Notes under the pieces: model-generated
Seen by the model: the letters and a program-made list of their open reading frames with translations, nothing else
Told to the model about the DNA's origin: nothing
The model's database searches: none
Shown: piece by piece, positions 343 through 46,715 of the stretch
Layout of the letters: every line of letters begins with the position of its first letter
How positions within the stretch are numbered: the stretch's first letter is position 1
Made by a program: the position numbers and the translations under genes
From: Thermoanaerobaculia bacterium
GTDB taxonomy: Bacteria > Acidobacteriota > Thermoanaerobaculia > UBA5066
Reading direction: 5' to 3'
Assembly: GCA_038245905.1 (NCBI GenBank)
Contig: JBBRRY010000001.1
Coordinates: 282,951-346,950, forward strand
Length of the DNA: 64,000 nt

Positions 343-1200
343 ATGCGCCACCAGGTTCTCACCGCCCTGCTCCTCGCCGCCGGGGCCGCAAACGCCGCCT
401 CTCCATCGGGTTTCGGTCTCGATGTTCTCGTGAACGGGAGCCCCCGCCCCGAATTCGCCGCGCGGGGCACCGTCTACGTGGAGGCGCTGAAGGGGCACGA
501 CTTCTCGCTGAGGGTCACGAACCCCCTCGGAGTCCGGGTGGCCGTCGCGCTCTCCGTGGACGGCCTCAACACGATCGACGCGAAGCACACGTCCGCGATT
601 GACGCCCGCAAGTGGGTCCTCGACCCGTACCAGACGGTCGTGATTCCCGGCTGGCAGGTCTCCGGCGAGACGAGCCGGAAGTTCTTCTTCACGGGCGAAA
701 AGGGCTCGTACGGTGCGAAGCTGGGCGAGACGTCGAATCTCGGGGCGATCGAGGCGGTGTTCTTTCGGGAGAGGCTCCCGTACAGGGCTCAGCGGCCGTG
801 GAGCGGGGGAAAAGAGGAAGACAAGATTTCTTCGAATGAAAGAGGAAAAGGCGCCGGACGACTCGACGAGCCTCGGGTCGAGGCGGCCGCCGGCGCGGCG
901 CAGCTTCCCGCCCCGAGCGAGAGCGTCGCCCGCGACCATTCAAAGAAATCCTCTTCTCCCCCCCCCTCTTCTCTCGCCGACGAGATGGCCGCCACCGGCA
1001 TCGGCAGCCGGACGCGCTTTGACGTCACGCGCGTCAACCTCGACCTCGAGGATTCGCCGGCCGCGTCCGTGCGCCTTCGTTACGAGTTCCGGCCGCAGCT
1101 CGTCGCGCTGGGCGTCCTGCCCAGCGACCCGGATCCCGCCCGGATCGCCCGCCGCGAGCGTGCCCGCGGCTTCGAGGACTTCTGCCCCGAACCCCGCTGA
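343..1200 (+). CDS. Exported conserved hypothetical protein
   Basis: SD AAGGAG at 331-336, ATG 343, signal peptide MRHQVLTALLLAAGAANA; conserved-looking core VALSVDGLN...IPGW...FFFT...NLGAIEAVFFRE. Confidence 0.8.
   Translation: MRHQVLTALLLAAGAANAASPSGFGLDVLVNGSPRPEFAARGTVYVEALKGHDFSLRVTNPLGVRVAVALSVDGLNTIDAKHTSAIDARKWVLDPYQTVVIPGWQVSGETSRKFFFTGEKGSYGAKLGETSNLGAIEAVFFRERLPYRAQRPWSGGKEEDKISSNERGKGAGRLDEPRVEAAAGAAQLPAPSESVARDHSKKSSSPPPSSLADEMAATGIGSRTRFDVTRVNLDLEDSPAASVRLRYEFRPQLVALGVLPSDPDPARIARRERARGFEDFCPEPR
824..951. repeat. Dispersed motif pair (reverse copy 824-838, forward copy 937-951)
   Basis: AGATTTCTTCGAATG in a purine tract and CATTCAAAGAAATCC followed by a pyrimidine tract, both inside CDS 343-1200. 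Confidence 0.7.
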
Positions 1201-1216
1201 GCCCCGAAACTCTCCC

Positions 1217-1266
1217 GGCTCTCCTTCGTATGCGTAAAGGATAGATTCCGCTTACGAAGGAGAGCC
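1217..1266 (+). promoter_or_regulatory. 18-bp stem-loop covering the SD of the M16 peptidase gene
   Basis: GGCTCTCCTTCGTATGCG (1217-1234) pairs with CGCTTACGAAGGAGAGCC (1249-1266), one mismatch, 14-nt loop. The right arm contains GAAGGAG just upstream of ATG 1272. Confidence 0.6.
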
Positions 1267-1271
1267 CTCGA

Positions 1272-4121
<2,850 letters not shown>

Positions 4122-4141
4122 CACTGGCCATCCCGGCCCGC

Positions 4142-4178
4142 TTGACGGTCTTGTGGGTATGACCTAGAGTCATACCCA
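4142..4178 (+). promoter_or_regulatory. Sigma70-type promoter and palindromic operator of the TA operon
   Basis: TTGACG 4142-4147, 17-bp spacer, TAGAGT 4165-4170. Perfect inverted repeat TGGGTATGAC (4154-4163) / GTCATACCCA (4169-4178) overlaps the -10 and the start codon. Confidence 0.8.
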
Positions 4179-4740: not shown

Positions 4741-4742
4741 GC

Positions 4743-6517: not shown

Positions 6518-7329
6518 CGGCGAGACGCGTACGCCCGCCTGCCGTCGCCGGGACGTTCTACCCCGGCCGCCCCAGTGATCTCGCCCGAACCGTCGACGAC
6601 CTGCTCGCCGAAGCCGGTCATCCGCCGGACGGGCCTCCGCCCGTCGCGCTCGTGGTCCCGCACGCCGGCTTCGTCTACTCGGGGCCTGTCGCCGCGAGCG
6701 CGTACGCGCGCTTGAAGACTCACGCGGCCTCGATCGCCCGCGTCGTCGCGTTCGGTCCGGTGCACCGCGTGCCGGTGCGCGGCGCGGCCGTTCCGGCTGC
6801 CGATGCGTGGGCAACACCCCTCGGCGAGGTGCCGATCGACGCCGGCCTGCGCGCACGGGCGGTCGCGCGCGGCGCCGTCGTGGACGACAGGCCTCACGCT
6901 CCCGAGCACGCGCTGGAGGTGCAGCTCCCCTTCCTCCAGCGCATCCTCGACGAAGGGTTCACGTTCCTTCCTGTCGCGGTCTCGGAGCTGTCCGCGCGGG
7001 CCGCGGCCGACCTCGTCGACGAATTTCTCGGCGAGACAGGCACGCTCGTCCTCGTGAGCACGGACCTGAGCCATTACCACGACCTCGTCACGGCGCGCCG
7101 CCGCGACAGGTGCACGGCGGACTCGATCCTCGCGCGCGAGCCCGAAAAGCTCTCCGGCGAAGACGCGTGCGGTTTCTATCCGCTGAGGGGCCTCATGGAG
7201 CTGGCAAGGCGAAAAGGCCTCCCGGTGACTCTCCTCGACCTGAGGACCTCAGGCGACACCGCCGGGGACCCGGAAAGTGTCGTCGGCTATGGGGCGTTCG
7301 CAATTCCTAGTCTCATTAACCCATTCTAA
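6514..7329 (+). CDS. amrB: AmmeMemoRadiSam protein B (MEMO1 family)
   Basis: GTG 6514 overlaps the amrS stop; [43 protein letters not shown]...VVGYG. Confidence 0.92.
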
Positions 7330-7347
7330 GTAAATCTGTTACCTCTC

Positions 7348-7425: not shown

Positions 7426-7911
7426 ATGTTCCGAATGACGAAGATGACCGACTACGGGATCGTGCTTCTGACGCACTACGCGGCGCACGACGACCAGGTG
7501 GCGCACACGGCGCGCGAGCTGGCGCTCGAGACGCGGCTCCCCCTCCCCACCGTGGGCAAGCTCCTGAAACAGCTTTCCCGCGGCGGGCTTCTCGCCTCGC
7601 AGCGCGGCACGAAGGGCGGCTACGTCCTCTCGCGGCCACCGCGGGAGATCACGATTTCCGCGATCATCGCGACGCTCGAGGGCCCGGTCGCGATCACCGA
7701 GTGCAATACGGCAGAGAGCCACAGCCGGTGCGAGCACGAGAGCTTCTGCTCGGTGCGCCCCAACTGGCAGATCATCAACGACACGATCCGCGGCGCCCTC
7801 GAGGGCCTGACTCTCGCGGACATGACCCGTCCGCTCGCGCCCCGGTCCCGGCCGCCTGCGTTCTCTTCCGGCCTTCCCGTGCGCGCGCCGGAAGGAAGGA
7901 GCGCGCTGTGA
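7426..7911 (+). CDS. Rrf2 family SUF system transcriptional regulator
   Basis: [11 protein letters not shown], w[16 protein letters not shown], three Cys (EC...C...C); first gene of the suf operon. Confidence 0.92.
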
Positions 7912-10143: not shown

Positions 10144-10147
<4 letters not shown>

Positions 10148-11526
10148 CGCGTCCCGCTCCGTCGACGGCCCTTCGTGAGGGGATTCCCACGCTCGCCGCG
10201 AGCGCCAGGGAACTCGCGGCGCGGCGGCCGAGCCCGCCCTGGCTGCAGAAGCTGCGGACGTCCGCCCTCGCCGAGTTCGAGGCGCTCGGCTTCCCGTCGA
10301 CGAACGACGAGGACTGGCGCTTCACGAACCTGGCACCCCTGGCCCGGACCGCCTTCGCGCTTTCTCACGACGACGTCTCCCTCGCCGAGCGGACCGCGGC
10401 GCTCGAATTGGAAGCGCGGCTTGGACCGTTGGGACTCTCGTCGCCGGAGCCCCGGATCGTGTTCGTGAACGGGCGTCTTCTGAGGCGATCTCCGGGCAAT
10501 CTCACCGCCGCGATTCTCTTCGAGTGTATGAAGGACGTTCTCGCGAGATCGCCGGAGCTTGTCGAACGCGCCCTCGTTGCGCACGCGGCCGAGAGAGACT
10601 CTTCGAAGGACTTCTTTGGCGCTCTCTCTGATGCTTTTCTCGACAACGGCGCGGTCCTGCACGTGCCGGCCGGCGCCCATCTCGAAGAACCTCTCTTCAT
10701 CCTCCATGTCGCAACGCCGCCGGGCTCCTCGGAAGCGCCCCGAATGGTGCATTCACGCAGTCTCTTCACATTCGAAGAAAACTCTTCCGCAACCGTGATC
10801 GAGGCGTATCTGGGATCGAGCGGCTCGAGCTTCACGAACAGCCGCACCGACGTCACGCTCGCGAGGGGCGCCCGCCTCCAACACGTCACGCTTCAGCTGG
10901 AGGGCCCCGACGCGTTTCACGTCGGCCGGCTCGCCGTGACGCAGGCAGCGGCCTCCCACTCCACGTCTCATGTCTTCTCGTTCGGGGGAAAGCTCGCCCG
11001 GAACGAAGTCGCCATCACCCTCTCGGGCGAGGGCGCCTTTGGGGAGCTGAACGGCCTGTTCTGCGCCGCCTCTTCCCAGCACGTCGACTGCCATACGCTC
11101 ATCGACCACGCCCTGCCCCGCGCCTCGAGCGTCGAGCTGTACAAGGGCGTCCTCGACGGCACGGGCCGCGGCGTCTTCGACGGCAAGATCCTCGTGCGCG
11201 CCGGCGCCGCCCGCACGGACGCGCGCCAGACGAATCGCAACCTCGTCCTCTCCGACAGCGCCCTCGTCGACAGCAAGCCCCAGCTCGAGATCCACAACAA
11301 CGACGTCCGCTGCACGCACGGCTCGACGACCGGGCGCCTCGACGCCGACGCCGTGTTCTACCTGCGCTCGCGCGGCCTCTCGCCCGAGGCGGCTCGGGCG
11401 CTCCTCACATACGCGTTCGGCAGCGAGCTGATCGAGAAAGTGCCGTCCGCCGACGTGCGGGCTTTTCTCGAAAACCATCTGCGCGCCTGGCTGCCCGCGA
11501 ACCTCGCCGCTCCGGAGGCCCGATGA
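10144..11526 (+). CDS. sufD: Fe-S assembly protein SufD
   Basis: [39 protein letters not shown]. Confidence 0.95.
10596..10783. repeat. Dispersed motif pair inside sufD (reverse 10596-10609, forward 10769-10783)
   Basis: AGACTCTTCGAAGG and CATTCGAAGAAAACT, degenerate copies; the DNA between them is visibly richer in A/T-ending codons. Confidence 0.5.
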
Positions 11527-13247: not shown

Positions 13248-13598
13248 ATGGCTGAAGAGAAGATTTTCTTAGAGGGTAATAAGGGCGAGAGCGCATCCCC
13301 TCTCGAGCAAAAGGTCATCGACGAAGCGCTGAAGAAGTGCTTCGACCCAGAGATCCCGGTCAACATCTGGGAGCTGGGGTTGATCTATTCGGTTGCCGTG
13401 TCGCCCGAAGGCGCCGCCGACGTGAAGATGACGCTGACGGCGCCCGCGTGCCCCGTCGCGGGATCCCTTCCCGGCGAGGTCGAGACGAAGATCAAGGCCG
13501 TTCCGGGCATCACGGACGCGAAGGTAGAGCTCGTCTGGGACCCGCCCTGGACGGCCGGAATGATGTCCCGCGTGGCGCGCGTCATGCTCGGGATGTAG
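13248..13598 (+). CDS. sufT: DUF59/SufT Fe-S assembly protein
   Basis: DPEIPVNIWELGLIY, MTLTAPACP, VWDPPW. Confidence 0.9.
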   Translation: MAEEKIFLEGNKGESASPLEQKVIDEALKKCFDPEIPVNIWELGLIYSVAVSPEGAADVKMTLTAPACPVAGSLPGEVETKIKAVPGITDAKVELVWDPPWTAGMMSRVARVMLGM

Positions 13599-15087
13599 CG
13601 GGCTCCGGTCTCCGCAGAGACAGCAGCCATCCTGTTCCGAACGCGATCGTGGAGCCGATGAGGGAGTACCAGGGCCACGCGATCGCCTTGCCGAGCGGGA
13701 ACGGGATCCAGCCCTTCGAGCCGAGCCACAAGACGAACATGAAGACGGCGGATGTTGCGATGCCGATCATCGCGTCTGTCTGAGTCGCCTTCTTCGCCCA
13801 GAGGGCAAGGAGGAAGCCTCCGAGGAGTCCGCCCGCGGTGACGCTCGCGAGACCGAGCGCGACCTGCACGGCCGGGACGTTCTGCGGCAGGCGCGAGAAC
13901 CCGACGGCGAGAGCGGCGAGAACGATCGTCCAGAAGAGGGTGAGCAGCTTGCCGAGAACGAGCCCGCGCCTTCCCTCCACGTGCTTCCTACCCATTAGGG
14001 GCGCGACGATGTCCATCGCGAGGGCCGACGCGAGCGAGTTGAGCGCGGACGACTCCGAGCACATCGCGGCAGAGAAGATCCCGGCGACGAGCCAGGCAGA
14101 GACGAACGGCGGCAGGCTCGTCACGATGAACGTCGGCAGGATCGCGTCCGAGGACGCGAACCCGCCCGGCCCGACGACGCGCCCGCCGTAGAACGCGAAC
14201 ATCCCGACGCCGAGCGCGAGGAACAGCGTGAACTGCAGGATCACGAGGACGCCTGAGCCGATGAGGGCCTTCTGCGCGTCGCGCAGGCCGCGGCACGCCA
14301 ACAATCTCTGGACGATCAGCTGGTCGGCGCCGTGGGACGCCATGGCGAGGACTGCCCCACCTATGATTCCGGCCCACAGCGTGTACGGTTCGGAAAGATT
14401 CTTTGAAAGGTTAAAGAGCGAGACGGGTCTGCCGAGCTCCGAACACCTTCTAAGAATCTCCTCCCATCCCCCTCCGAATGAATGGAGGAGCACCCAAAGA
14501 GCCATCGTCGCGCCCGAGATGTACACGAAGACCTGGATGAGGTCGATCCAGATCACGGCCTTGATGCCGCCGACGTACGTGTAGAGCGCCGTCGCGGCCG
14601 CGAGAATCAGGATGGCGACCCAGACGGGGATCCCGAGGATAAGGGCGATTGGGATCGCGGGCACCGCGAGGCGGACGCTCGCGGCCATCACCCGCGTGAC
14701 CATGAAGATGACGGACGTGAACCGCCGCGCGCCGACACCGAAGCGGCGCTCGAGGAGCGCGTACGCCGTCGTAATCTCTCCGTGGAAGTATCCAGGCAGG
14801 AGCAGGAACGACACGGCGATCCGCCCGATCAGGTAGCCGAACGCGAGCTGCAGGAACGTGAAGCCGGTCCGGTACGCGTCGCCCGGCACGGAGAGAAAAG
14901 TCAGGGCCGATGTCTCCGTCGCGACGATGGACGCCATGACGGCCCACCACGGCATGGCGTGGCCGCCCAGGAAATAGTCCTTCGCGTCCTTCTGGCCCTT
15001 TCCGAGCCAGGCGCCGAGCACGTTGATACCGGCGAGGTACAGCGCGATCGCGATGAGCGTCGGCAGCCCGAGGGAAATCCCTTCCAT
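13582..15087 (-). CDS. Sodium:solute symporter (SSS/SLC5 family)
   Basis: ATG 15087; DYFLGG...SIVATETSALTFLSVPG, GGIKAVIWID, GADQLIVQRLLAC; about 13 TM segments. Confidence 0.92.
   Translation of the reverse strand: MEGISLGLPTLIAIALYLAGINVLGAWLGKGQKDAKDYFLGGHAMPWWAVMASIVATETSALTFLSVPGDAYRTGFTFLQLAFGYLIGRIAVSFLLLPGYFHGEITTAYALLERRFGVGARRFTSVIFMVTRVMAASVRLAVPAIPIALILGIPVWVAILILAAATALYTYVGGIKAVIWIDLIQVFVYISGATMALWVLLHSFGGGWEEILRRCSELGRPVSLFNLSKNLSEPYTLWAGIIGGAVLAMASHGADQLIVQRLLACRGLRDAQKALIGSGVLVILQFTLFLALGVGMFAFYGGRVVGPGGFASSDAILPTFIVTSLPPFVSAWLVAGIFSAAMCSESSALNSLASALAMDIVAPLMGRKHVEGRRGLVLGKLLTLFWTIVLAALAVGFSRLPQNVPAVQVALGLASVTAGGLLGGFLLALWAKKATQTDAMIGIATSAVFMFVLWLGSKGWIPFPLGKAIAWPWYSLIGSTIAFGTGWLLSLRRPEPATSRA
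14396..14459. repeat. Dispersed motif pair inside the SSS gene (reverse 14396-14410, forward 14446-14459)
   Basis: AGATTCTTTGAAAGG and CCTTCTAAGAATCT followed by a C/T tract. Confidence 0.7.
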
Positions 15088-15135
15088 GTGGGCGGGATGA
15101 TCACACAGGGGCCTCGCTTCGCTTAAGCTCGCGGA

Positions 15136-18100: not shown

Positions 18101-18156
18101 CAGGCTCCGACGCTCGACTCGAGCCTTTGCGCCGGATTCTGACGAGGGACGTGTGA
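15136..18156 (+). CDS. addB: AddB-like inactive-helicase/PD-(D/E)XK nuclease subunit
   Basis: C-terminal SASRLEKLGQCP...GQIDRID...WDYKSG...Q..LY...CRFCPYTSIC (four-Cys Fe-S staple); directly upstream of addA. Confidence 0.85.
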   Translation: MTPTVERNRLLQELAAFCEAHPVDEKILLVPSFPVGQQILDSLARSGCAHLNLRPATVFSLAHGIAGPSLAAEGKRLLSRAQLLSVVESACDEVLKEGSYFGKLRERVGLHRALQRTLDELRRAGLGAAPLPVSAFEEPRKGRELAALARAYAKALAALGAADSADVLHRAVSLCAAGSRLSESAHLLRPSGLEPATLEETFLAAFARQIVTLVEDSPEYGAQSVDVMFTQALGEENEVRAVFRMLAAGICVADSVEIVFEDDATYRPLVYELASQYGVPCTFAEGIPVAYTLPGQGILDLLDWVATDFASAPIERLLAEGRADLRSFTPKGTRPSGLRAARLLRRARIFSGASRWAPRLDALAARENAAPEGDDADGLAERARLERHGTAITLRDFAASLFTLVPPPSRGRISLPALARACHALTGTLLRRRGPLDAAAVEALTGLFAELGDLPERTLPPREAADRLKEAVRSLAVDSSTPFPGCVHVSRLRRGGYAARARTFVLGLDEARFPGPPRQDPVLLDSERRALNDALPAAHLTIRGVRGPDESRRALRAALARGRGHVFLSFSNRDFLRDAERFPSPVLLDLFRECERRPDASWSDFTTSLPPSETFVPSGKPLDGSEWWLARVRETPGARGLADEVDSAYSWLAAGTRAEGKRSGPLFTAWDGAIRADASALDPRLTKEPLSASRLEKLGQCPRRFFLQYVLELTPPEEPRAEDVWLSASEYGNLLHQTLYDFMSGLRDEGLRLDPVRDTATLKAAAGRRLGRWREIVPPPTPAAYRAQEDDLLAACDIFLKSEAENPGARPLYFEVPFGLSRGSASEPLASREPVEIRTKRGSFLLQGQIDRIDETGPGRYAVWDYKSGSDWAFKEDDRRRHPLRGGRLLQHALYRRAAATLLARAGTSAEEIVSGYFLPTRKGRMQRFPLEARDEDVDRTLDDLFDLVASGAFPHTADEGDCRFCPYTSICGDVAEAAARAALKRDAAGSDARLEPLRRILTRDV

Positions 18157-21455: not shown

Positions 21456-21845
21456 GAAGGGCCACCGTTCTCGCCGTGATTCTCGCGGCCGGCTGCGCGT
21501 CGTCCGACTGGGCGAAGACCGAGAGCGTGCCGGGCGGCAAGCTCTACCTCCCAAAGCTCTACGCTCCGCTCCTCCCCGGCTCGATCTATCCAGACAGGAA
21601 GACGCCCCTACCGCCGAAGGGCCGCCCGGCGATCGTCGTCGTCTGCCCGGCGAAAGGCGACTGCCGGAAGAGAGAGATCCTCGATCAGGCGGCGCAACGT
21701 GGCCTCGTCGTCCTCGTCACCCGGAGAGCCGACGCCGCAATTGCCGCCCGGCCCGAGGTGGATGTCGCGCGGACCGGGATTCTCATCGTAGCCGCCGCTT
21801 CGCTGAAGGCTGAGCCCTCTCCCTCTTCCCCTTGTAAGAAAATCT
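21397..21845. repeat. Dispersed motif pair (reverse 21397-21411 at the addA 3' end, forward 21830-21845)
   Basis: AGACTTCTTTGAAGG in a long purine tract; CCTTGTAAGAAAATCT in a pyrimidine tract. Confidence 0.65.
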
Positions 21846-32174: not shown

Positions 32175-32250
32175 TCGCGGACTTTACGATGAAATTTGCC
32201 ACGCCCCTATTGCGATAGCATCGTCGGCCAATGACCATTCAAAGAAATCT
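31837..32250. repeat. Dispersed motif cluster (reverse 31837-31852; forward 31982-31996 and 32236-32250)
   Basis: AGACTTCTTTGAAAGG, CTTTCAAAGAAATCT, and CATTCAAAGAAATCT followed by CCCTTTCTTCTCCTCC. Confidence 0.75.
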
Positions 32251-33985
32251 CCCTTTCTTCTCCTCCGCGTTCCTGGCCATCCTCGCGGCCGCCTGCAGCA
32301 AGCCCGCGCCCGCGCCGGTCTCCCCCACGCCCGCCCCCGAGCCGACGAAAGTCGCCTCGTCGATCCGGTTCGAGGACGTGACGAAGGCCTCGGGTGTCTC
32401 GTTCGTCCACGTAAACGGCGCCGCCGGGAAGAAGTGGATGCCCGAGACCATGGGCTCCGGCATCGCGGCGTTCGACGCTGACGGCGACGGCCGCGTCGAC
32501 CTTCTCTTCGTGAACGGCCGGTACTGGCCGGGAGACCCGAAGGCCGCGAGGCAACCCACGCTCTCGTTCTGGCGAAACGTCACCGAGCCGGGGGGACCGA
32601 TCCGGTTCGAGGACCGTACGCGCGACGCCGGCTTCGCTGTTTCGCTCTATGGCATGGGTGTGGCCGTCGGCGACGTGAATGACGACGGGTTCCCCGATGT
32701 CGTCGTCACGGGCCTCGACGACATCCGCCTCTTTCTCAACGACGGCAAGGGCCGCTTCCGTGACGCGACAAAGGGGTCGGGTCTCGTCGGATCCGGCTGG
32801 GGCTCGTCCGCGGCCTTCGCCGACTTCGACGGCGACGGAGTCCTCGACCTCTTCGTCGGCCAATACGTGAATTGGACTCCGAAGACGGACATGTACTGCT
32901 CGCTGGACGGTAAGACGAAGTCCTACTGCACGCCCGAGCGCTACAACGGCGTCTCATCCCGCCTCTACAAAGGCCTCGGTGGCGGAAAGTTCAAGGACAT
33001 CACGAAAGAAGCCGGCCTCCTGAACCCTCTCGGCAAGGCGCTGGGCGTGGCCGTCCGCGACATCGACGGCGACGGCCGCATGGACCTCGTCGTCTCGAAC
33101 GACACGTCGCCCAACAACCTGTACCGGAACGAAGAGACCGTGAACGGCGTCCCCGTCTTTCGCGACATGGCCGTCGAAGCCGGCGTTGCCGTGGGAGAGG
33201 ACGGCCGCGCGCGCGGCGCGATGGGCGTCGCGTTCGGCGACACGAAGAACGACGGCGGCACTTCCCTCGTGATCGGCAACTTCTCGAACGAGATGTGGTC
33301 CGTGTTCGCCGCGGGCCCGAAGGGCGACTTCTTCGTGGATGAATCCATCCAGAGCGGAATCGGGCGGACGTCTCTTCTTCCGCTCACGTTCGGCGTCGCC
33401 TTCGCGGACTTCGACCTCGACGGCGTTCTGGACCTCGTGGGCGTCAACGGCCACGTCGAGACTTCCGTCCAGAGCGTTCAGCCCACGGTGACCTATCGCC
33501 AGGCGCCGCTCCTCTATCGCGGCCTCGGCGCGGGCAAGTTCGCCGACGCTTCGTCCCAGGCGGGCGCGGGCTTCCTCGCGCCGATCGTCGGACGCGGGCT
33601 GGCCCTCGCCGACCTGGACGGAGACGGCAGGCCCGATCTCGTCGTGACCGAGAACGGCGGCCCTGCTCACGTCTTCCGCAACGTGACGGAGACGCCGGCG
33701 AAAGCCGTGCGTCTCCAACTTGCAACGAACGGCAAGAACCGCGACGCGATCGGCGCGCGCGTGACCTGCTCGATGGGCGGAAAGAAGCGCGTCGACGAGG
33801 TCTCGGGCGGCGACGGCTACCTCTCCGTCAGCGAGAGGACGATCACGATCGGGCTCGGCGCCGCGCCGAAGCTCGACGGGGTCGACGTCCGCTGGCCGGA
33901 CGGCACGACCGCCTCCGCGAAGGACCTCGCTCCGGGACTCTACAAATGGGTCGAGGGCGGAGCACCGGAACCCGCAAAACGCTAG
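32231..33985 (+). CDS. CRTAC1-like lipoprotein (FG-GAP/VCBS repeats + ASPIC/UnbV)
   Basis: Lipobox LAAAC; repeated DxDGDG motifs; NRDAIGARV...GYLS...GLG...VRWPDG. Confidence 0.9.
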   Translation: MTIQRNLPFFSSAFLAILAAACSKPAPAPVSPTPAPEPTKVASSIRFEDVTKASGVSFVHVNGAAGKKWMPETMGSGIAAFDADGDGRVDLLFVNGRYWPGDPKAARQPTLSFWRNVTEPGGPIRFEDRTRDAGFAVSLYGMGVAVGDVNDDGFPDVVVTGLDDIRLFLNDGKGRFRDATKGSGLVGSGWGSSAAFADFDGDGVLDLFVGQYVNWTPKTDMYCSLDGKTKSYCTPERYNGVSSRLYKGLGGGKFKDITKEAGLLNPLGKALGVAVRDIDGDGRMDLVVSNDTSPNNLYRNEETVNGVPVFRDMAVEAGVAVGEDGRARGAMGVAFGDTKNDGGTSLVIGNFSNEMWSVFAAGPKGDFFVDESIQSGIGRTSLLPLTFGVAFADFDLDGVLDLVGVNGHVETSVQSVQPTVTYRQAPLLYRGLGAGKFADASSQAGAGFLAPIVGRGLALADLDGDGRPDLVVTENGGPAHVFRNVTETPAKAVRLQLATNGKNRDAIGARVTCSMGGKKRVDEVSGGDGYLSVSERTITIGLGAAPKLDGVDVRWPDGTTASAKDLAPGLYKWVEGGAPEPAKR

Positions 33986-39312: not shown

Positions 39313-39341
39313 TTCATGTGATGCCTCCCTGAAGGAAATGC

Positions 39342-39458
39342 AGACTTCTTAGATGGTGAATACGGAAAAAGGCACAGACGGGTTTCCTTCTCGGCGGCCC
39401 CTGTTCCTTTCTAAGAAATCCCCTCTTCTCTTTCCCCTCTTTACCTTTTAAGAAATCT
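39342..39458. repeat. Dispersed motif cluster (reverse 39342-39356; forward 39407-39421 and 39444-39458)
   Basis: AGACTTCTTAGATGG, CTTTCTAAGAAATCC and CCTTTTAAGAAATCT; each forward copy is followed by CCTCTTCTC. Confidence 0.75.
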
Positions 39459-41129
39459 CCTCTTCTCCGCGAGCGTCCCGTCGCGGAGCGTGTAAAGCCG
39501 ATCGGCCGCAACGCCTTCGAACGCTGCGGAGGGCGCGGTCTGGCCCGGGGCGACGATCTCGACCTTCGCCGCCGTGGCGGTCCCGAGCCCGAAGTGCAAA
39601 GGCACCCAGGCGCCCGAGGCGTAGGAGGGACGAAGGATGAACTCCTGGACCTGACGGACGCCGCCCGTCGTGACGACGACCTTCGTTCCGAGGACAGTGC
39701 GGCGATCCGCTCCCGCCACCGGCAGGATCTCGAGCGCGTGGCCCGTCGCCGCGGTCGCGTTGCGCATAACACGGACGCCGCCGGCGACAGAGGCGATCAC
39801 GAGGTCGACGCGGCCATCGCCGTCGAGGTCCCCCGCCGCGAGCCCGCGGGCCGTGAGGCGCAAACCGGCGAAATCCCCCGAAGACGCCGTTGCGTCGGAA
39901 AGCCGCCCTCCGCCCTCGTTGCGGTAGAGAACCGGCGGCTGCCTGTAGCTCCGGTCCCCGCGCACGTACGGACCGAGACCCTTGCTGTTCCCGAAGAGCC
40001 TCGCCATCGACATGATGAACTTGGGAATGAGATGCCCGGAGACCATGACGAGGTCTGGCCGCCCGTCGTCGTCGAAGTCGGCGATGTCGGTCCCCCACTG
40101 GACGTACGGGAGCGACGCGCGCTCGACGCCGGAGGACTCCGTCGCGTCGTCAAAGAGCGCGCCCTCCAGGTTGCGATAGAGCGTTTTCGGCTCGCCCGCG
40201 AAATTCGTCACGAAGATCTCCGGCCGACCATCGCCGTCGAGGTCGCCGATCGCGACACCCATGCCGGCGCGGGCCTCCTTGTGGTCGCGCCTGCCGGCGC
40301 CGGCTTCGACCGTCACGTCCTCGAACGTGCCGTCGCCCCGGTTGCGATAGAGGACGTTCGTCGTCCGGTCGTTCGCGACGTAGAGGTCGGGTTTGCCGTC
40401 GCCGTCGTAGTCGAAGAAGACGGCCGAGAGGCCGCGCCCGCCCGCGTTCGGAACACCGGCCTGTTTCGCGCGCTCGACGAAACGTCCGTCCACGCCTTGG
40501 ACGTTCAGCTTCGCCTCCTGGCCCTCGTAGTCCTCGGGGACCCGGACCTCGAACTGCCGGAATGCGTTCTCCTTCCCGTAATCCGTGTCGAGGTAACCGA
40601 CGACGTAGAGATCGACGCGCCCGTCTCCGTTCACGTCCCCTGCCGCGAGGCCGACCGCGTAGCCGGGCGCGGCGAGGCCGCGCTCGACCCCGACCTCGCG
40701 GAATTTCCCGTTGCCGAGGTTCTTCCATATCTCGGTCCTCCCAACTCCCGTCACGACGAGGTCGATTTGCCCTTCGCCGTCGAGGTCCACCCAGGAGGCA
40801 CCCATCTTCCAGCCGCAGGAGTGAATGCTCGAGCGCCCCGTCACGTCCTCGAACGTCCCGTCGCCCCGATTCCGATAGAGAACGCCGCAGGGGCCAGCCT
40901 CCGGCTTGCTGCCGTTCGCCACGGAGCCCGTGAAGAAGAGGTCAAGGAATCCATCTCCGTCGAAGTCCCCCGCCGCGACGCCCCCGCCCATGGTCGCGAG
41001 ATTTCGCCCGCGCCTGAGGTCGGTGTCGAACTTGAAAGTCACCCCCGAGCGCTTTGTGACGTCCGTGAAGCGGATCGGGGGGTGAGGCGAGAGGAGAAGC
41101 GCGGCGAGAAATGCGGCGGCGAATCTCAT
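39441..41129 (-). CDS. CRTAC1-like exported protein (FG-GAP + ASPIC/UnbV)
   Basis: ATG 41129 in an ATGA overlap with the upstream gene; IRFTDVT, several DxDGDG repeats, SYASG...LHFGLG. Confidence 0.9.
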   Translation of the reverse strand: MRFAAAFLAALLLSPHPPIRFTDVTKRSGVTFKFDTDLRRGRNLATMGGGVAAGDFDGDGFLDLFFTGSVANGSKPEAGPCGVLYRNRGDGTFEDVTGRSSIHSCGWKMGASWVDLDGEGQIDLVVTGVGRTEIWKNLGNGKFREVGVERGLAAPGYAVGLAAGDVNGDGRVDLYVVGYLDTDYGKENAFRQFEVRVPEDYEGQEAKLNVQGVDGRFVERAKQAGVPNAGGRGLSAVFFDYDGDGKPDLYVANDRTTNVLYRNRGDGTFEDVTVEAGAGRRDHKEARAGMGVAIGDLDGDGRPEIFVTNFAGEPKTLYRNLEGALFDDATESSGVERASLPYVQWGTDIADFDDDGRPDLVMVSGHLIPKFIMSMARLFGNSKGLGPYVRGDRSYRQPPVLYRNEGGGRLSDATASSGDFAGLRLTARGLAAGDLDGDGRVDLVIASVAGGVRVMRNATAATGHALEILPVAGADRRTVLGTKVVVTTGGVRQVQEFILRPSYASGAWVPLHFGLGTATAAKVEIVAPGQTAPSAAFEGVAADRLYTLRDGTLAEKRRFLKR

Positions 41130-44100
41130 CTTTCCCCGAGCGCTTTCCGGAATCGCTCGGGCCCGACTTCGCGCGTGAGGGTGCGTTCCAGAAAACCCGG
41201 GTCCGGATGATGCTCGGTCTCGGGATACGGATACGCCGACATCGCGTGGAACGGCCAGGGACCGTAGGACTGCCCCGTCACGGTGTTCTTGTCGAAGTCC
41301 TTGTCCCAGCCGTCGGAGACGAGGATCCAGTCCCGGTGCCACCCCGCTGCGAGCGGCGGCAGCTTCGAGGCGTCGTACGTGATCCGGATCGCATCGCCTC
41401 CCTTGAACGCGACCCAGCGGTCGTCGGCCTTCGAGAGGAATTCCATCACGTCGCCGAGGCGCGTCACCCGGCCCGGAATGTCCTCCCAGCGGGGCCGCGT
41501 CGAGACGTCGCCGTGGTCGAAGACTTCGGGGCCGTCCGGTGTCTCACGATACCCCTGCGGGAATCCGCGCTCGGAAAGCACGGCGGCCACCGGGGAGAGA
41601 AGCGTCGTGACGACGTCCACGGCCGGGTCGTTCACCGTGACGAGCGCCTCGTCCCAGAAGATCGCCATCGTCGTCCGGATGCGCACGCGCGGGTCGTTCG
41701 GATCGAAGAGGCCCGTGAGGTCGACCGGCATCGTCTTCGTCTTCCCGGCGGGGAACCCGAACGATTCCATCGCGACCTTCCAGCCGCCCCGACCGTCCGG
41801 CACTTCGAGGACCGGCGGGAAATGCGCGAGGTCCTTCCTCTGCGAGAGCGAGACGTTGATCGACGTGTCCGTGTAGAAGATCCAGCCCGAGAGGAAGAGG
41901 ACCACGCGATCCCCCGCCGCCACGTCCCCGAGATCGAGAACGAGGGCATGCTCCTTTCGGACGCCCTGATAGAACGTTTCGGGCCCGGGTCCCACGTACA
42001 CCTGATCGCGGCTGGCCAACCGGGCGGTCACGTCTTCAATGCGGCCCGAGGCGTCGGAGAATGCGGCGCGCACGGGGCGCGGATGCGTGACGGTGAAGAG
42101 CTTCTTCTCCGTCACGCCCGGAATCGTCCGCTCATTCGGCACGACGACCGTGCCCTCGGGATGATCGACCGCCATCAGCGTGGCCTCGTCGAGGAATGCG
42201 ACCTCCCACAGCTCCTCGGTGTAGTCGATCTCGAGCCGGCCGGCGGCGTCCGGCCGAAGCGCCGCGCCGTCGATGAACAGCCACTCGCGCGCGTCCCAGC
42301 CCGCGAGGTGGACGCCGTCATAAAGGAGTCCGATCGGAGAACGTCCGAGCGCGTCGGAAATGAAGCTCCAGACGCCGGTCTCGCCGTTCCGCGCGTAGAC
42401 GAACGGACACGAGCCCTTGAGCTGCTGGACTTCCCTGACGACCGACCTCGCCTTCTGGTCGAAGAGGTTCTGGGGTACGCCGTTCGTCCAAGTAACCCGT
42501 ACGACGTCCGCTTTCGCGTGCGGACCGAGGCCGACGTGTGTCGGCAGGAGGCTCGCGAGACGCACCACGTAGAGGTTCCCCGCCTTCACCTCGACGAGAC
42601 TTCCGACGCCCTGCCTGTTCACCTTTCCCGAACCGGTGGGCAGGCCTTCGAGAACGACCACCAGCCAGCCGTTCGCGTTCCCGCCGTCGTTCAGGAGGAC
42701 GCTCGTCTTTCCGCCGGCCGAGACGAGGAGGTCGAGATCTCCGTCCTTGTCGACGTCGAGGGCGAGGAGCGCGTCGACTGCTGCCAGGTTTGAGGAGAGG
42801 GAATAAGAAGAAGATTTCTTTGAAGGTGAAGAGAAGACAGGCCAGTCCGCGAACTTTCCGCCTCCGAGATTCCTGAACGCGTGGAGGCCGTCCGAAGAGG
42901 CCGCGACGACGTCCGGGAATCCGTCGTTGTCGAAATCGGCGAGGACAACCGCCCGCATCGCGGCCGAAGCGCCCGCAGCATCGAGCCCGCTCCCCGCGCC
43001 TTCAAAGAAATTCCCATCTCCATTTCCGATCAACAGCCGGAGCCCTTTGGACGTCGCAACGACGATGTCCGGAATCCCGTCCGCGTTCACGTCCTCGACC
43101 GCGACGTCCGTCGCGCCCGAGACGTGGAGGGGCACGTTCCTGAGGACGCCCGAGCGCAGATTGAGGCGCAGAACAAGATCGCCCTTCGCGTCGATCGTCA
43201 CGAGATCAGGATCGCCGTCCCGGTCGACGTCGAAGACGACAACCTTCTTCGAATGGAACGTGGCATCGCCCGTCTTCGCCGTCACGTCGGAAAATGTTCC
43301 GTCGAGATTGTTGCGGAGAAGCTGATCGGGCTTGCTCCCACCATAAAGGTAGACGTCGAGATCGCCGTCGAGGTCGTAGTCGAAGAAGACAGCGGAGACG
43401 AAGGGCGCCGGAACTGGATACTGCGCAGCCGCTCCCGAGTTGGCGAGGTCCACCCTTCTCAGAAGTCTTTCCACGCTCTCCTCGGACCCGGCGGGCGCGC
43501 GAAACGTCACCGGAATCGCGGCGGCCGGTCCCGAGCGAAGCCCCTCTTCGACCTTCGAAGCAAATCTCTCGATCGGCAGGCCCACGACCTGCGTGAAGAC
43601 CTCGGCGAGCGATTGCTGGTACCGGGGCGTGACCCGAAGGACGTTCTCGAGAACGCGGACCTTGACCGTCGCGCCTTTCACGTCGCCTCTCCCCGCGAGC
43701 GTCCGGGCCTCGGAGAGAAACTGGCGGGCGCGCGCGTCGCCGTCGGAGATGAGAGGGTCCAGCTCGGTGACGCCCTTCGACAAGGCAGCCGCGTCTCCCG
43801 CCTCGCCCTCGAGGACGAGAAGCTTCAACCGCGCCGGCAGATTCGAGGGCGCACGGCCGACGATCTCGGCGAGGCGTGTCTTCCGGGCGGCCTTCTCGGC
43901 GGGCGAAGAGGACGAGTCCGTCTCGACGCTTCGCGCGAATCGCCAGCGCGACTCGAGATCGCGCGGGTTCAGGGCGGCCGCCTTCTCGAGGGCGGCGCGG
44001 ACGCCGGCGGGACGGTTCCGTTCGTTCTCGAGAGCCGCGCGAATCGCGTACAGATCCGCCCGCTCACCGAGGGCCAGCGCCTTGCCGAGGAGAGACTCGG

Positions 44101-44398
44101 CGCCCGCAAGATCCTTCTCACGCAAGGCCGCGACGGCGCCGTTCGCGAGAGGCAGGGCTTCTCCGGGCAGGAGCTCGGCGAGACGCGCGAACGTCGCGCG
44201 GGCTTCTTTCGGCTTGTCCTCCTCGAGCTGCGCAAGGCCGACGTTCCGGAGAGACAGGATCTTCGAAGAAGAAGATATTTCTGCTGAAGAGGAGGACCAA
44301 GAGAACGCGATCGCGGCGGCGAGTGCGATGGCGGCCCAGCGGCAACGTTCGAAGAGAAACCTTTTCTTAGAAAGGGACTGAAAAAGGAGGAGGTTCAT
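41126..44398 (-). CDS. Large TPR + FG-GAP/VCBS + ASPIC/UnbV protein with an extra C-terminal domain
   Basis: N-terminal hydrophobic segment and TPRs, DYDLDGD/DVDRDGD/DFDNDG repeats, HVGLG...WTNG, then KGSCPFVY...GWDKDFD domain. Confidence 0.88.
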   Translation of the reverse strand: MNLLLFQSLSKKRFLFERCRWAAIALAAAIAFSWSSSSAEISSSSKILSLRNVGLAQLEEDKPKEARATFARLAELLPGEALPLANGAVAALREKDLAGAESLLGKALALGERADLYAIRAALENERNRPAGVRAALEKAAALNPRDLESRWRFARSVETDSSSSPAEKAARKTRLAEIVGRAPSNLPARLKLLVLEGEAGDAAALSKGVTELDPLISDGDARARQFLSEARTLAGRGDVKGATVKVRVLENVLRVTPRYQQSLAEVFTQVVGLPIERFASKVEEGLRSGPAAAIPVTFRAPAGSEESVERLLRRVDLANSGAAAQYPVPAPFVSAVFFDYDLDGDLDVYLYGGSKPDQLLRNNLDGTFSDVTAKTGDATFHSKKVVVFDVDRDGDPDLVTIDAKGDLVLRLNLRSGVLRNVPLHVSGATDVAVEDVNADGIPDIVVATSKGLRLLIGNGDGNFFEGAGSGLDAAGASAAMRAVVLADFDNDGFPDVVAASSDGLHAFRNLGGGKFADWPVFSSPSKKSSSYSLSSNLAAVDALLALDVDKDGDLDLLVSAGGKTSVLLNDGGNANGWLVVVLEGLPTGSGKVNRQGVGSLVEVKAGNLYVVRLASLLPTHVGLGPHAKADVVRVTWTNGVPQNLFDQKARSVVREVQQLKGSCPFVYARNGETGVWSFISDALGRSPIGLLYDGVHLAGWDAREWLFIDGAALRPDAAGRLEIDYTEELWEVAFLDEATLMAVDHPEGTVVVPNERTIPGVTEKKLFTVTHPRPVRAAFSDASGRIEDVTARLASRDQVYVGPGPETFYQGVRKEHALVLDLGDVAAGDRVVLFLSGWIFYTDTSINVSLSQRKDLAHFPPVLEVPDGRGGWKVAMESFGFPAGKTKTMPVDLTGLFDPNDPRVRIRTTMAIFWDEALVTVNDPAVDVVTTLLSPVAAVLSERGFPQGYRETPDGPEVFDHGDVSTRPRWEDIPGRVTRLGDVMEFLSKADDRWVAFKGGDAIRITYDASKLPPLAAGWHRDWILVSDGWDKDFDKNTVTGQSYGPWPFHAMSAYPYPETEHHPDPGFLERTLTREVGPERFRKALGER
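42812..43567. repeat. Dispersed motif cluster (reverse 42812-42826; forward 42999-43013, 43454-43468, 43552-43567)
   Basis: AGATTTCTTTGAAGG (perfect consensus), CCTTCAAAGAAATTC, CCTTCTCAGAAGTCT, CCTTCGAAGCAAATCT. Confidence 0.7.
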
Positions 44399-44526
44399 CA
44401 GAAGGGATTATGGCCGGAACGCGGCTACCCGACTCGCGCCGGGAATTCGTGCGTCACGCCGGGCGAGTCGGCCCTCTTCACCTTCTAAGCAAGTCCTTCT
44501 TCCCTTCCGTATTCCTAAGCAGATCT
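44358..44526. repeat. Dispersed motif cluster (reverse 44358-44375; forward 44481-44496 and 44511-44526)
   Basis: TTTCTTAGAAAGG, CCTTCTAAGCAAGTCC and ATTCCTAAGCAGATCT with C/T tracts; they bracket the intergenic hairpin 44429-44471. Confidence 0.65.
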
Positions 44527-46715
44527 CTCCTCTCTTCTCTTCCCTCGACCAGCGTGACGAGCGTGCCGCCTGGCACGTCATGGAGCGTGTCGCGGCGGCC
44601 GTCCGGCCAGCGAATCTCGATGGAGTCCGCCATTTTCGCGCCTCCGAGACCAAACAGAAGATCGTGGGAGGACTGCGACAGGAACGAGGATCCGGCGCGC
44701 ACCTCGCGGAGCTGCACCTTCCCGTTCACGCGGAGTTTCACGACGGCGCCGAGCGCGTCTCGGTTCATGCCGTGATCCACAGAAAGCCGGACGACGACGC
44801 GGCCCCCGCCCTCTCCCCATGCGTTCCGATAGAGATGGAGGGGCCCGCGGAAGCACGAGAGCACGATCTCCGGAGCCCCGTCGCCGTCGAGGTCCGCGTA
44901 TGCGAGGCCGCGCGTGTCCTCGAGCGTGTCGAAACCTTCCACGAACGCCCGCTCCTCGAACGTGCCGTCGCCGCGGTTCCAGAAGAGCTTCTTCGGCGTC
45001 CGGGACGCCATGCCGTTCGCCCCGAAGTCGATTCCGCCCCAGACGCCGTCGTGGAAGTTCACACCGTCGCGGCCCATCGCGTTCCAGAAGGCGATCTCGT
45101 CGTCTTTCCCGGTCGTCGCCCGGAACATTCCGTTCACGACGAGAAGGTCCTCGCGGCCCTTGCCGGCGAGGTCCACGAACTCCGTGCCCCACGCCCATCC
45201 GCCGTCCGCGACGCCCGCCGCCTCCGACGTGCGCTCGAACTTCAGGCCGCCGAGATTGCGAAAGAGCCCGTCCCCGCGCGACCTTCGCCCCATGACCTTC
45301 GCCATGTGGGGGCGCACGAGGCCGGCCAGCGGCACGGGCGGCATCGGCCACCGGGAATCCCGGAGAATCCACTGATAGGGCGTCCAGTAGTCGGCCACGT
45401 GGAGGTCCCACCTGCCGTCGCCGTCGTAGTCGCCCCAGGCGACGCCCATCCCGTAACCTTCGTCTTCGGTGCCGCTCGTCTTCGCGATGTCCACGAACTT
45501 CGGATGCCCAGGCGTCGAGCGGTTCTCGAAAAACGCGTTTCGCCCGAAGTCGTTCGCGACGTAGAGATCGTCGTCCCCGTCGTCGTCGGCGTCGCAGGCC
45601 TCCGCGGCGAAGCCCCATCCCGCATCGCCGAGGCCCGAAGCCGCCGTCTCGTCCACGAAGAAGGGATGCCCGGCTCGTTCGACGTTCCGGAAGAAGCGGC
45701 TGCCTCCCCCGTTCCGACCGTCGTACGCAGGCCCGGTCGCGCGCGCGTCGCCGTAGGCCGCCACGAAGAGATCCACGCGCCCGTCGCGGTCGGCGTCGAA
45801 GAACACGGCGGACGTGAACGGTCCCGAGAGGCCGGCGAGGCCCCAGGCCTCCGTGACGTCGCAGAATTTCCCGTGGCCGAGGTTCTTCAGGACGCGGCTC
45901 GGAGAGACGTGGTTCGAGAGGAACAGCTCCGGCAACCCGTCGCCGTCCAGGTCGGCGGCGACCCCGCCCGACGCCTCCATCTCCGGCAGGAGGTCGAGCC
46001 CGGAGCCCGCGGTCGCGTCGCGAAAGTGTCCGGTCCCGTCGTTCAGGAACAGCCTTGGGTGCCTGTTCGGGACGATCACGTCCACGAAGCCATCTCCGTC
46101 GACGTCCACGAGGACGACGCCGGGGTGGTGATGCGTCGCGGGCAGGCAGAAGTTCGTCGCCTCCACGGGATCGAGGGACTCGTGCCGCGCGACGAGGCCG
46201 CGAGCCGCGGCTTCCTCGAAGAGGTGAGGGACTCCGCGCTGGATGGCGGCGGGCCCGTTCACCGCGAGGGCCGAGCGCAACTGCCAGCTCCCAGCCGGAG
46301 AAGACTCGGAGGGATTTCTGCGAAAGAAAACGAGATCGAAGAGTAGCCTCGCGGCCACGCGTTCGGACGAATCCGCGCGCGCCCAGCCCTGCAGGCGGAA
46401 TTCGACCCGAACGAGGATGTCCGATGAGGACTTCTTCTGAAGGTCGATGATTCGGACGGCCGAGTCACACCGAAAGGCGCATGCGCTCCGCAACGCTTCC
46501 GAAAGCTGCCATAAGGACGGCTCCTCAGCCGAGTCCGAAGTCCCGGCGCTCCTCTCCCTCTTCCCCCCAAAGAATTCTTCTCTCAGCTCTTCGACCTTCG
46601 CCGATACGTCGTGGGAGTAGTCCTCGAGGCTGGGCATCGGCCGCGTGCCGCCGCAACCCGCGGCAAGAGTCGCCACGGCGATGAGCTCGAACAAGGCGAT
46701 GGGGTGCCGTGCCAC
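44478..46715 (-). CDS. CRTAC1-like lipoprotein (N-terminal extra domain + FG-GAP + ASPIC/UnbV)
   Basis: GTG 46715; lipobox LAAGC; DxDGDG repeats; NRDALGA...AGSSFLSQ...FGLG...IRWPDG. Confidence 0.88.
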   Translation of the reverse strand: MARHPIALFELIAVATLAAGCGGTRPMPSLEDYSHDVSAKVEELREEFFGGKRERSAGTSDSAEEPSLWQLSEALRSACAFRCDSAVRIIDLQKKSSSDILVRVEFRLQGWARADSSERVAARLLFDLVFFRRNPSESSPAGSWQLRSALAVNGPAAIQRGVPHLFEEAAARGLVARHESLDPVEATNFCLPATHHHPGVVLVDVDGDGFVDVIVPNRHPRLFLNDGTGHFRDATAGSGLDLLPEMEASGGVAADLDGDGLPELFLSNHVSPSRVLKNLGHGKFCDVTEAWGLAGLSGPFTSAVFFDADRDGRVDLFVAAYGDARATGPAYDGRNGGGSRFFRNVERAGHPFFVDETAASGLGDAGWGFAAEACDADDDGDDDLYVANDFGRNAFFENRSTPGHPKFVDIAKTSGTEDEGYGMGVAWGDYDGDGRWDLHVADYWTPYQWILRDSRWPMPPVPLAGLVRPHMAKVMGRRSRGDGLFRNLGGLKFERTSEAAGVADGGWAWGTEFVDLAGKGREDLLVVNGMFRATTGKDDEIAFWNAMGRDGVNFHDGVWGGIDFGANGMASRTPKKLFWNRGDGTFEERAFVEGFDTLEDTRGLAYADLDGDGAPEIVLSCFRGPLHLYRNAWGEGGGRVVVRLSVDHGMNRDALGAVVKLRVNGKVQLREVRAGSSFLSQSSHDLLFGLGGAKMADSIEIRWPDGRRDTLHDVPGGTLVTLVEGREERRDLLRNTEGKKDLLRR
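46312..46578. repeat. Degenerate motif cluster (reverse 46312-46326 and 46428-46443; forward 46565-46578)
   Basis: GGATTTCTGCGAAAG, GGACTTCTTCTGAAGG, and CCCCAAAGAATTCT in a C/T tract. Confidence 0.45.

Follow-up and report, generated by a model that had tools for sequence, protein, structure and literature searches.

Why is one short, AT-rich word written over and over across unrelated genes of a GC-rich bacterial genome? The question is raised by a stretch of 64,000 nucleotides from a Thermoanaerobaculia bacterium of the phylum Acidobacteriota (assembly GCA_038245905.1, contig JBBRRY010000001.1, positions 282,951 to 346,950), which is called the window below. A first-pass annotation of the window had listed dispersed copies of a motif with the core TTCWAAGAA. 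To our knowledge, few genome-wide words override codon use and even protein sequence, namely uptake sequences, Chi and KOPS (FtsK orienting polar sequences). Each of these revealed a machine that reads the chromosome. The results below indicate that the motif is a DNA recognition site about 25-40 bp long, specific to one lineage and asymmetric between the strands, and that its neighbouring copies face outward in pairs. Single copies are referred to as arms, coordinates are window positions, and bits are scores of a position weight matrix (PWM).

Detection and enrichment of the motif

The core TTCWAAGAA had 11 exact matches in the window, compared with a mean of 0.26 in dinucleotide shuffles, and none of 100 shuffles reached 11. 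The claim that at least 11 exact cores lay far above chance was therefore correct, and the GC content given with it (about 69%) was a fair estimate, since the window measures 64-70%. The 15-mer consensus with up to three mismatches matched 22 times, against 3.03 expected. The PWM covered 23 nt and was trained on the genome's own 268 core copies; with a threshold of 10 bits it detected 25 sites in the window, all within 820-46582, and the final 17.4 kb (46583-64000) held none at that threshold. A PWM site was found within 6 nt of 24 of the 27 coordinates listed in the first-pass annotation. The other three (44511 on the plus strand, 10596 and 46428 on the minus strand) were too degenerate to score, and one weak site, at 43245 on the minus strand, was absent from that list. 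Among the 268 core copies, the frequency of G on the motif strand was at most 0.10 from -10 to +15 and at most about 0.2 until about +26, which agrees with the pyrimidine tract described earlier. The flank consensus on this strand is approximately CTCTTCACC-TTCTAAGAA-ATCTTC, and the tract is nearly G-free from about -12 to +27.

The source genome comprises 3.8 Mb in 113 contigs, with 67.8% GC and a completeness of 96%. It contains 268 copies of TTCWAAGAA, 129 on the plus and 139 on the minus strand. When the 10-mers of the genome were ranked by their enrichment over an order-3 Markov model, 58 of the top 60 were pieces of the motif (32- to 448-fold), the TTCTAAGCAAATC variant among them, and the remaining two were CTAGCAGGCT and its complement. 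Genes were called as 3115 open reading frames (ORFs) by a codon-usage score, a rough set that over-calls (92% coding). Inside these called genes 189 cores were found, a 16-fold excess over the 11.8 ± 3.3 (maximum 18) of 20 within-gene synonymous-codon shuffles; 20 codon-order shuffles gave 5.0 ± 2.8. The first-pass annotation had named the lack of enrichment over a codon-aware background as a ground for dismissing the motif. The enrichment persists over both backgrounds, and this ground therefore falls away. At 16 bits or more, the matrix detected 523 arms genome-wide, compared with 108 for the reversed matrix.

The arms in called genes were 181 sense and 175 antisense. All six frames were used, with 36 to 75 arms each, and the encoded peptides varied with the frame (SKK, FKE, QRN, DFFE, ILRR, ISLK). 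Codon choice is thus overridden with no restriction to one frame or peptide, in agreement with the proposal that the signal lies in the DNA rather than in the protein. The fourth base of the core was T in 113 of 167 non-coding arms. Where T would make an in-frame TAA it was T in 2 of 70 arms, and where T would make an in-frame TAG in 0 of 46; where A would make an in-frame TGA, it was A in 0 of 61. In its ideal form the core is therefore a 9-bp palindrome, TTCTAAGAA. The quasi-palindromic core TTC-N3-GAA of the first-pass annotation was right in being palindromic in its ideal form, while its 'W' degeneracy is really the avoidance of stop codons, because the fourth base shifts only where a stop would fall in frame. 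In genes, the arms are accommodated by rare codons, by altered residues in variable loops and by these one-base core swaps.

Outward-facing pairs

The arms of at least 16 bits showed a strict rule of orientation. Among neighbours at most 300 bp apart, 145 pairs were outward-facing (minus then plus), 4 were convergent and 26 were tandem, and 290 of the 523 arms belonged to outward-facing pairs, in which the CACC sides face one another. This arrangement had been missed when the copies were described as dispersed. The distance between the core starts of a pair was 28-290 bp, with a median of 113 bp and one overlapping hit at 4 bp. Furthermore, a weaker partner (at least 6 bits) of the 225 remaining 'single' arms was found on the inner side in 90 cases and on the outer side in 10. 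The spacing had no periodicity at 10.5 bp (|z| 0.035) or at 3 bp (|z| 0.072), the chance level being about 0.074.

The inner segments of the pairs were host sequence with no relation to one another; their composition was ordinary (66% GC) and their length varied widely. In the FG-GAP protein of 1090 residues, for example, the inner segment of a pair codes for a normal FG-GAP repeat. One open reading frame spanned 38% of the pairs, compared with 42% of random spans. A third element inside the pairs was sought, and only weak k-mer excesses were found. GAATTC was counted 22 times inside 133 pairs (4.8 expected) and may belong to degenerate inner flanks. The identity between partner arms was 0.435, against 0.431 ± 0.005 for non-partners, so that no covariation between them was detected, the fourth core base included.

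Origin and conservation of the arms

The origin of the arms was examined at few sites, in a loop of an SSS transporter and in an M1 peptidase. The SSS pair consists of arm B (14391-14413, minus strand), which is sense and reads LSKNLS in the codon view, and arm A (14442-14464, plus strand), which is antisense and reads EILRRC; both have the exact core. Its place in the loop is the same at 24 orthologous loci within the genus, which share 80-86% DNA identity. In nine orthologs of other genera, with 67-75% amino-acid identity, the loop is equally long but differs in its residues, with ALAAN in place of ILRRC for instance, and is encoded by GC-rich codons. Arm A scored 14-28 bits in all 22 orthologs with at least 82% identity, and arm B scored at least 14 bits in 11 of these 22. 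Neither arm exceeded 0.3 bits in any of the 32 orthologs with at most 73% identity. The three codon positions of arm A were each conserved at about 0.90, compared with 0.93, 0.98 and 0.77 in the rest of the gene, a comparison of few columns. In addition, indels of 9-12 nt adjoin the SSS arms. The equal loop length in the outgroup, and the presence of the motif in 22 of 22 orthologs within the genus against 0 of 32 distant ones, indicate that substitutions at the base of the genus created the SSS arms in place, changing the protein, and that the two arms can decay independently.

In the M1 peptidase gene, the left arm of a pair (31833-31855, minus strand, sense, exact core, 30.5 bits) lies in the N-terminal part. 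Spanning alignments were found in three genomes, and the copy they showed was close in G004 and G001 and degenerate in G003; G014 and the sister-genus genome G057 gave no spanning alignment. The right arm, 143 bp away (31978-32000, plus strand, antisense, 33.0 bits), was aligned in all four genomes of the genus, and G057 had a GC-richer proto-site. In four congeners, most of the other arms between 28 and 48 kb were found at matching sites and varied in quality, and the arm with its core at 42816 was lost through a gap in G004. On the origin of its copies the first-pass annotation was silent; in the cases examined, they are point-substituted in place, at positions conserved across the genus. 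The two arms of a pair look independent, given the lack of covariation, the lack of 10.5-bp phasing and the survival of SSS arm A where arm B has decayed.

Taxonomic range

The exact 12-mer CCTTCWAAGAAA was counted across genomes, with the word read backwards as the control. All 26 genomes of the source genus contained it, in 37-260 copies each, a 7-fold range among congeners. It was present in 7 of 8 genomes of the sister genus (1-17 copies per genome), in 3 of 26 from the other eight genera of the family (0-1 copies) and in 3 of 16 from two other families of the order (0-2 copies). The control gave 0-3 copies. The set of 16 includes one unpublished genome (G025), and the statement of range is unchanged without it. 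In 400 kb of G057, TTCTAAGAA occurred 12 times, compared with 0.19 expected. The result indicated that the exact word is confined to one genus and, weakly, its sister genus, and is nearly absent from the other genera searched, as expected of the lineage-specific signal that had been proposed.

Other words were observed in the relatives. Beside the weak TTCTAAGAA signal, G057 had further over-represented 9-mers, TTGTTGTAG/CTACAACAA and GCAACAGCA. A genome from another family of the order (G033) carried a different repeat, in which runs of the heptamer GGTTTCA/GGTTCCA form convergent inverted copies about 45-55 bp apart, resembling the hairpins of repetitive extragenic palindromes (REP). Viral carriers of the motif were also considered and rejected: at least 120 loci in viral contigs matched a 15-mer, no phage of the lineage was shown among them, and the matches look like chance in AT-rich DNA because the highest GC content was 56%.

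Distribution along the chromosome

The overall density was about one arm (at least 16 bits) per 7 kb and one exact core per 14 kb. In no other 5 kb of the genome are arms as dense as in the FG-GAP/ASPIC cluster of the window, and the contig that carries dnaA is sparse. The armless end of the window (46583-64000) is one instance of a patchiness at the megabase scale that is seen genome-wide. This was also tallied from the copy lists of G020, a genome in three contigs with 148 copies of CCTTCWAAGAAA. The density per 100 kb was 7 copies on contig C1, 5.5 on C2 from 0 to 0.8 Mb, 1.4 on C2 from 0.8 to 1.7 Mb, 3.6 on C2 from 1.7 to 2.42 Mb, and 3 on contig C3. The dnaA gene of this genome is located at 839 kb on C2, with a weak sign change of the GC skew nearby. 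A pattern of origin and terminus macrodomains was considered for G020 and rejected, because the sparse part starts at dnaA, the likely origin, on one side only and the GC skew is weak.

Possible functions of the arms

By analogy with the DNA uptake sequences (DUS) and uptake signal sequences (USS) of other bacteria, the arms may label DNA as 'own' for a machinery of uptake or recombination, and be spread by transmission bias. We hold this to be the likeliest single reading, at a probability of roughly 0.3. We infer that each arm is read on double-stranded DNA by a putative sequence-specific factor, with a polarity of its own. If an arm marked 'own' DNA, alleles bearing the motif would gain a transmission advantage, as with DUS and USS. 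If, in addition, an arm promoted the transfer of the DNA on its inner side only, two outward-facing arms would promote each other, and by this mutual promotion only the outward-facing arrangement would accumulate. Such a mark best explains why so many sites stand at poorly conserved residues of conserved genes, why both orientations are equally common, why the word is limited by lineage and why its copy number swings. Genes for ComEC, DprA and ComEA-like proteins are present in the genome; they only permit the idea of uptake, because the same families match in 10-11 of 14 control genomes.

The motif resembles DUS and USS in being a lineage-limited, highly over-represented word with equal orientations (129/139) in genes and spacers. 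According to one study, USS and DUS occupy poorly conserved positions and shift codon use and encoded peptides (PMC2817400). The motif likewise stands at poorly conserved residues, reached by substitution in the cases examined, and the shift of codon use and peptides is common to it and to USS/DUS as that study describes them (PMC2817400). It differs from them in being longer and strand-asymmetric.

Several observations weigh against an uptake-like mark. The reciprocal hitch-hiking of the two arms is an ad hoc assumption added to account for the pairs. In Haemophilus influenzae there is about one USS per kb (PMC7811141), and the motif is about 7-14 times sparser. The same source reports that two USS at most 100 bp apart do not raise uptake, and that close USS pairs of opposite orientation overlap or lie within 14 bp of each other (PMC7811141). 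The pairs described here face outward across about 110 bp instead of at most 14 bp, and because the H. influenzae pairs differ in this way (PMC7811141), such a pair appears to be without precedent in uptake sequences. The density of the motif is patchy within core DNA rather than near-even, since contigs that do not differ in GC or in GC at third codon positions (GC3) range 25-fold, from 0.13 to 3.3 arms per 10 kb. Uptake sequences are sparse in recently acquired DNA, according to the other study (PMC2817400). However, synteny and similarity across eight congeners in the sparse stretches C18 and C10 equal those of the dense C14, and the sparseness is not explained by recent acquisition, because the sparse stretches are equally conserved across the genus. 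Up to about one fifth of the counted arms may be false, since the reversed matrix still detects its share. The host belongs to a different phylum, in which competence is hypothetical, and the records of the close orthologs are all metagenome-assembled genomes (MAGs), with no cultured member of the genus among them.

A signal in chromosome architecture fits the data about equally well and ranks only slightly lower. Each arm may serve, in an orientation-dependent way, to bind, block or load a nucleoid or SMC-type factor, in which case a pair would be a two-sided boundary or a bidirectional loading point. The strict orientation (145 vs 4) would follow from such a role, the broad unphased spacing suits arms that need only proximity, and the palindromic core suits a dimeric DNA binder. 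The independence of the arms, their lack of linkage to gene structure and the megabase-scale patchiness within conserved core DNA (5.5, 1.4 and 3.6 copies per 100 kb along C2 of G020) also speak for it, and it accounts for the pair rule and the patchiness more naturally than uptake does. However, hundreds of 25-40 bp sites that alter the residues of conserved genes need sizeable selection at each site, the copy number is 7-fold variable among congeners, the sparse region of G020 lies on one side of dnaA and is asymmetric about the origin, and there is no candidate protein. The more specific proposal that the arms, depending on their orientation, stop or anchor a DNA-translocating or loop-extruding machine, with the pairs as boundaries of domains of about 10 kb, is unlikely. 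The remaining readings named below share a modest part of the probability among them, and the rest falls to something not thought of. The motif fits none of the families tested, as the first-pass annotation had said of the consensuses it recognised.

Inverted arms that span 100-250 bp, in hundreds of copies whose number varies among congeners, recall a small mobile element present as relics or as domesticated ends, such as a miniature inverted-repeat transposable element (MITE), a REPIN (a mobile REP doublet) or a Correia element, or in-frame inserts of the Rickettsia palindromic type, and some indels do lie by the arms (the gap at 42816 in G004, 9-12 nt by the SSS arms). This origin is rather improbable and, at the sites examined, largely refuted: the interiors are unrelated host sequence of 66% GC and variable length, partner arms are no more alike than non-partners, and the positions of the sites are stable across the genus. 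Nothing was inserted at the SSS loop, because its length is equal in the nine orthologs outside the genus, and no Y1 transposase (RAYT/IS200) was found in the source genome (0 matches to PF01797; the control matched in 6 of 14 genomes). It is more doubtful still that the arms act as a hairpin in RNA or single-stranded DNA. Every strand does read purine arm, inner segment and pyrimidine arm, which could pair and close a large stem-loop, and of 128 elements folded at minimum energy, 79% had half or more of their left-arm bases in pairs with the right arm. Such pairing arises because the consensus itself is inverted. No variable position covaries, the fourth core base included, one arm outlasts the decay of the other, there is no sense bias (181/175), and the elements fold less stably than random genomic stretches of equal length (-60.2 vs -66.4 kcal/mol).

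A palindromic core would also be expected of operators for a global dimeric transcription factor, and pair centres were intergenic in 22% of cases, compared with 8% of random positions, and 50-150 bp upstream of the nearest called start in 15.9%, compared with 6.6%. This upstream excess is modest; 113 of the 145 pair centres lay within called genes, evenly spread along them, and the pairs in mid-gene loops of the SSS transporter, SufD and the M1 peptidase are conserved. Most sites are thus not at promoters, where a known transcription-factor box had been expected by the first-pass annotation if its claim was wrong, and the operator explanation is very improbable. Intragenic invertons, in which a recombinase flips the segment between the inverted arms, have at best a faint chance. 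The inverted arms do flank a short segment, sometimes within a gene, but 11 of the 145 pairs had less than 56 bp between core starts, with inner segments as short as 19, 28, 35 and 40 nt, which is very short for synapsis, and pairs lie inside sufD and a well-conserved transporter gene. Among the best 15 of 330 joints in contigs of four DNA runs over 28-48 kb, no arm pair was linked on opposite strands, a weak result because contigs lose rare forms; these joints were skips, returns and one opposite-strand joint between FG-GAP/ASPIC genes. Faintest of all is a polar guide for AddAB or FtsK of the Chi or KOPS kind, which the over-represented word and the AddAB-like operon of the window might suggest and which the first-pass annotation had cited as precedents. 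The motif is far longer than the known words of 5-8 nt, and the plus and minus counts of unpaired arms were 21 and 30 in stretches with a C-rich plus strand and 24 and 32 in those with a G-rich one. Guides of this type are excluded, because the orientation follows neither the GC skew nor the gene strand. Two further candidates were rejected: a Shine-Dalgarno mimic (GAAGGTGA on the purine strand), as a start codon is not consistently downstream and the orientation statistics are contrary, and Rho-loading (rut) sites on antisense RNA, as the predicted strand bias is not seen (181/175).

Arms and genes of the window

The host genes named in the first-pass annotation agree with the Pfam assignments, which give SufB/C/D/S, NifU-like, SSF, AddA-like, Peptidase_M1 and FG-GAP/ASPIC. 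Seven pairs stand in the window, with core starts at 828/939, 14399/14448, 31841/31984, 39346/39409, 42816/43001, 44364/44483 and 46316/46566; two wider or weaker ones are at 21401/21832 and 43245/43456. The first left arm (820-842, minus strand, 21.3 bits) is located inside ORF 325-1200, which has no Pfam family, and its right partner, 111 bp away, has the exact core (933-955, plus strand, 28.0 bits). A single arm lies at the 3' end of the Memo-like gene (Pfam Memo, 6652-7326) at 7318-7340 (plus strand, 21.9 bits). Inside sufD (SUFBD_core, 10144-11523), an arm at 10765-10787 (plus strand) scored 26.7 bits, and the partner listed for it at 10596 was below the threshold. A single antisense arm overlies the first codons of the FeS_assembly_P gene (13258-13280, minus strand, 27.5 bits). 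This part of the window has an ordinary arrangement of the IscR/SufR type, in which an Rrf2-family regulator gene (7426-7911) immediately precedes sufBCDS, the NifU-like gene and the FeS_assembly_P gene.

The reading frame of the SSS transporter (13582-16299, minus strand) is open for about 430 codons upstream of the likely start and overlaps the AddB-like gene (15136-18156, plus strand). This extension is a shadow ORF typical of high-GC DNA, and because of it the transporter was missed by the gene caller. The AddB-like gene (PD-(D/E)XK) and the AddA-like gene (UvrD helicase and PD-(D/E)XK nuclease) stand in tandem at 15136-21455 with an overlap of 4 nt. The C-terminal codons of the latter carry an antisense arm with the exact 15-mer consensus (21393-21415, minus strand, 30.8 bits), which forms a wide pair (431 bp) with the arm at 21826-21848 (plus strand, 28.6 bits) in ORF 21476-21994, a frame with no Pfam family. 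A multihaem cytochrome/TPR gene (Pfam) has a single antisense arm at 23371-23393 (minus strand, 19.3 bits).

The other arms are associated with four paralogous FG-GAP/ASPIC (CRTAC1-like) genes, located at 32231-33985, 39441-41129, 41126-44398 and 44478-46808. At least two of these have N-termini that resemble signal peptides, and contigs of related strains contain many joints between the paralogs. In the first, which is lipoprotein-like (MTIQRNLPFF...), an arm with the exact core covers codons 2-8 (32232-32254, plus strand, 28.6 bits). The spacer upstream of a TPR gene holds a left arm (39338-39360, minus strand, 21.8 bits) and, 63 bp away, a right arm with the exact core (39403-39425, plus strand, 28.3 bits), and a second right arm overlies the stop codon of gene 39441-41129 (39440-39462, plus strand, 28.7 bits). 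The 1090-residue gene contains the window maximum of 37.9 bits, a sense left arm with the exact 15-mer that reads PSKKSSS (42808-42830, minus strand). Its right partner, 185 bp away and antisense, has the exact core and lies, as seen in the translation, over an FG-GAP repeat (GNGDGNFFEG) in AT-rich codons (42995-43017, plus strand). A weak arm of only 10.3 bits (43237-43259, minus strand) is followed by two degenerate arms on the plus strand, at 43450-43472 (18.8 bits) and 43548-43570 (15.5 bits), which have better copies in G014 and G001, those of the former at the same site. According to the translation, the signal-peptide n-region of the same gene (LSKKR) is written by a left arm with the exact core (44356-44378, minus strand), and its right partner at a distance of 119 bp, a TTCTAAGCA variant, is at the stop codon of gene 44478-46808 (44477-44499, plus strand, 22.9 bits). 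The last pair spans 250 bp and consists of two degenerate arms, 46308-46330 (minus strand, 16.6 bits) and 46560-46582 (plus strand, 14.3 bits).

Significance and comparison with other known systems

The motif is the most over-represented word family in the genome and is conserved site by site across a genus of abundant uncultured Acidobacteria of sediment and soil, in a phylum with almost no genetics. A search of the literature at the level of titles found no description of it. The motif is usable as a marker for the binning of MAGs and for the detection of foreign DNA. A protein that reads it would be new biology, either as part of an uptake-signal system outside the Proteobacteria or as the reader of a sequence-encoded chromosome boundary.

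Among the families compared, none offers a counterpart to the strict outward-facing pairing. REP, the bacterial interspersed mosaic elements (BIMEs) and REPINs are extragenic doublets in which each unit is a hairpin, and doublet and spacer are moved as one by the REP-associated tyrosine transposase (RAYT). Like REP and REPIN, the motif has two short inverted units separated by a few tens of bases and recurs hundreds of times in a genome. However, its arms are not hairpins, its spacer is the host gene, its arms evolve in place, the Y1 family was not found in the source genome, and most of its pair centres are within genes. Rickettsia palindromic elements are insertions that add residues to conserved genes and are read through as protein. 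Like them, the motif is a repeat translated inside conserved genes, but whereas those elements add residues, the motif replaced existing codons, because the SSS loop keeps its length.

Chi, KOPS, matS and parS are, like the motif, chromosomal words; they override codon use and guide machines that handle DNA. Chi and KOPS words are strand-skewed with replication, and matS and parS are symmetric sites that occur in small numbers within a single region. None of the four is known to be built as outward-facing pairs, and the motif is not strand-skewed. A likeness in logic is offered by the diverging CTCF sites that stand, with cohesin, at the borders of animal domains. There, too, asymmetric sites stand back to back at loose spacing, and each has a meaning on its own side. 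The analogy is one of logic only, as CTCF is a eukaryotic protein that acts with cohesin and the motif is known from its sequence alone. If the arms were indeed barriers, they would be a bacterial counterpart of this back-to-back logic, hard-wired even into essential coding sequence.

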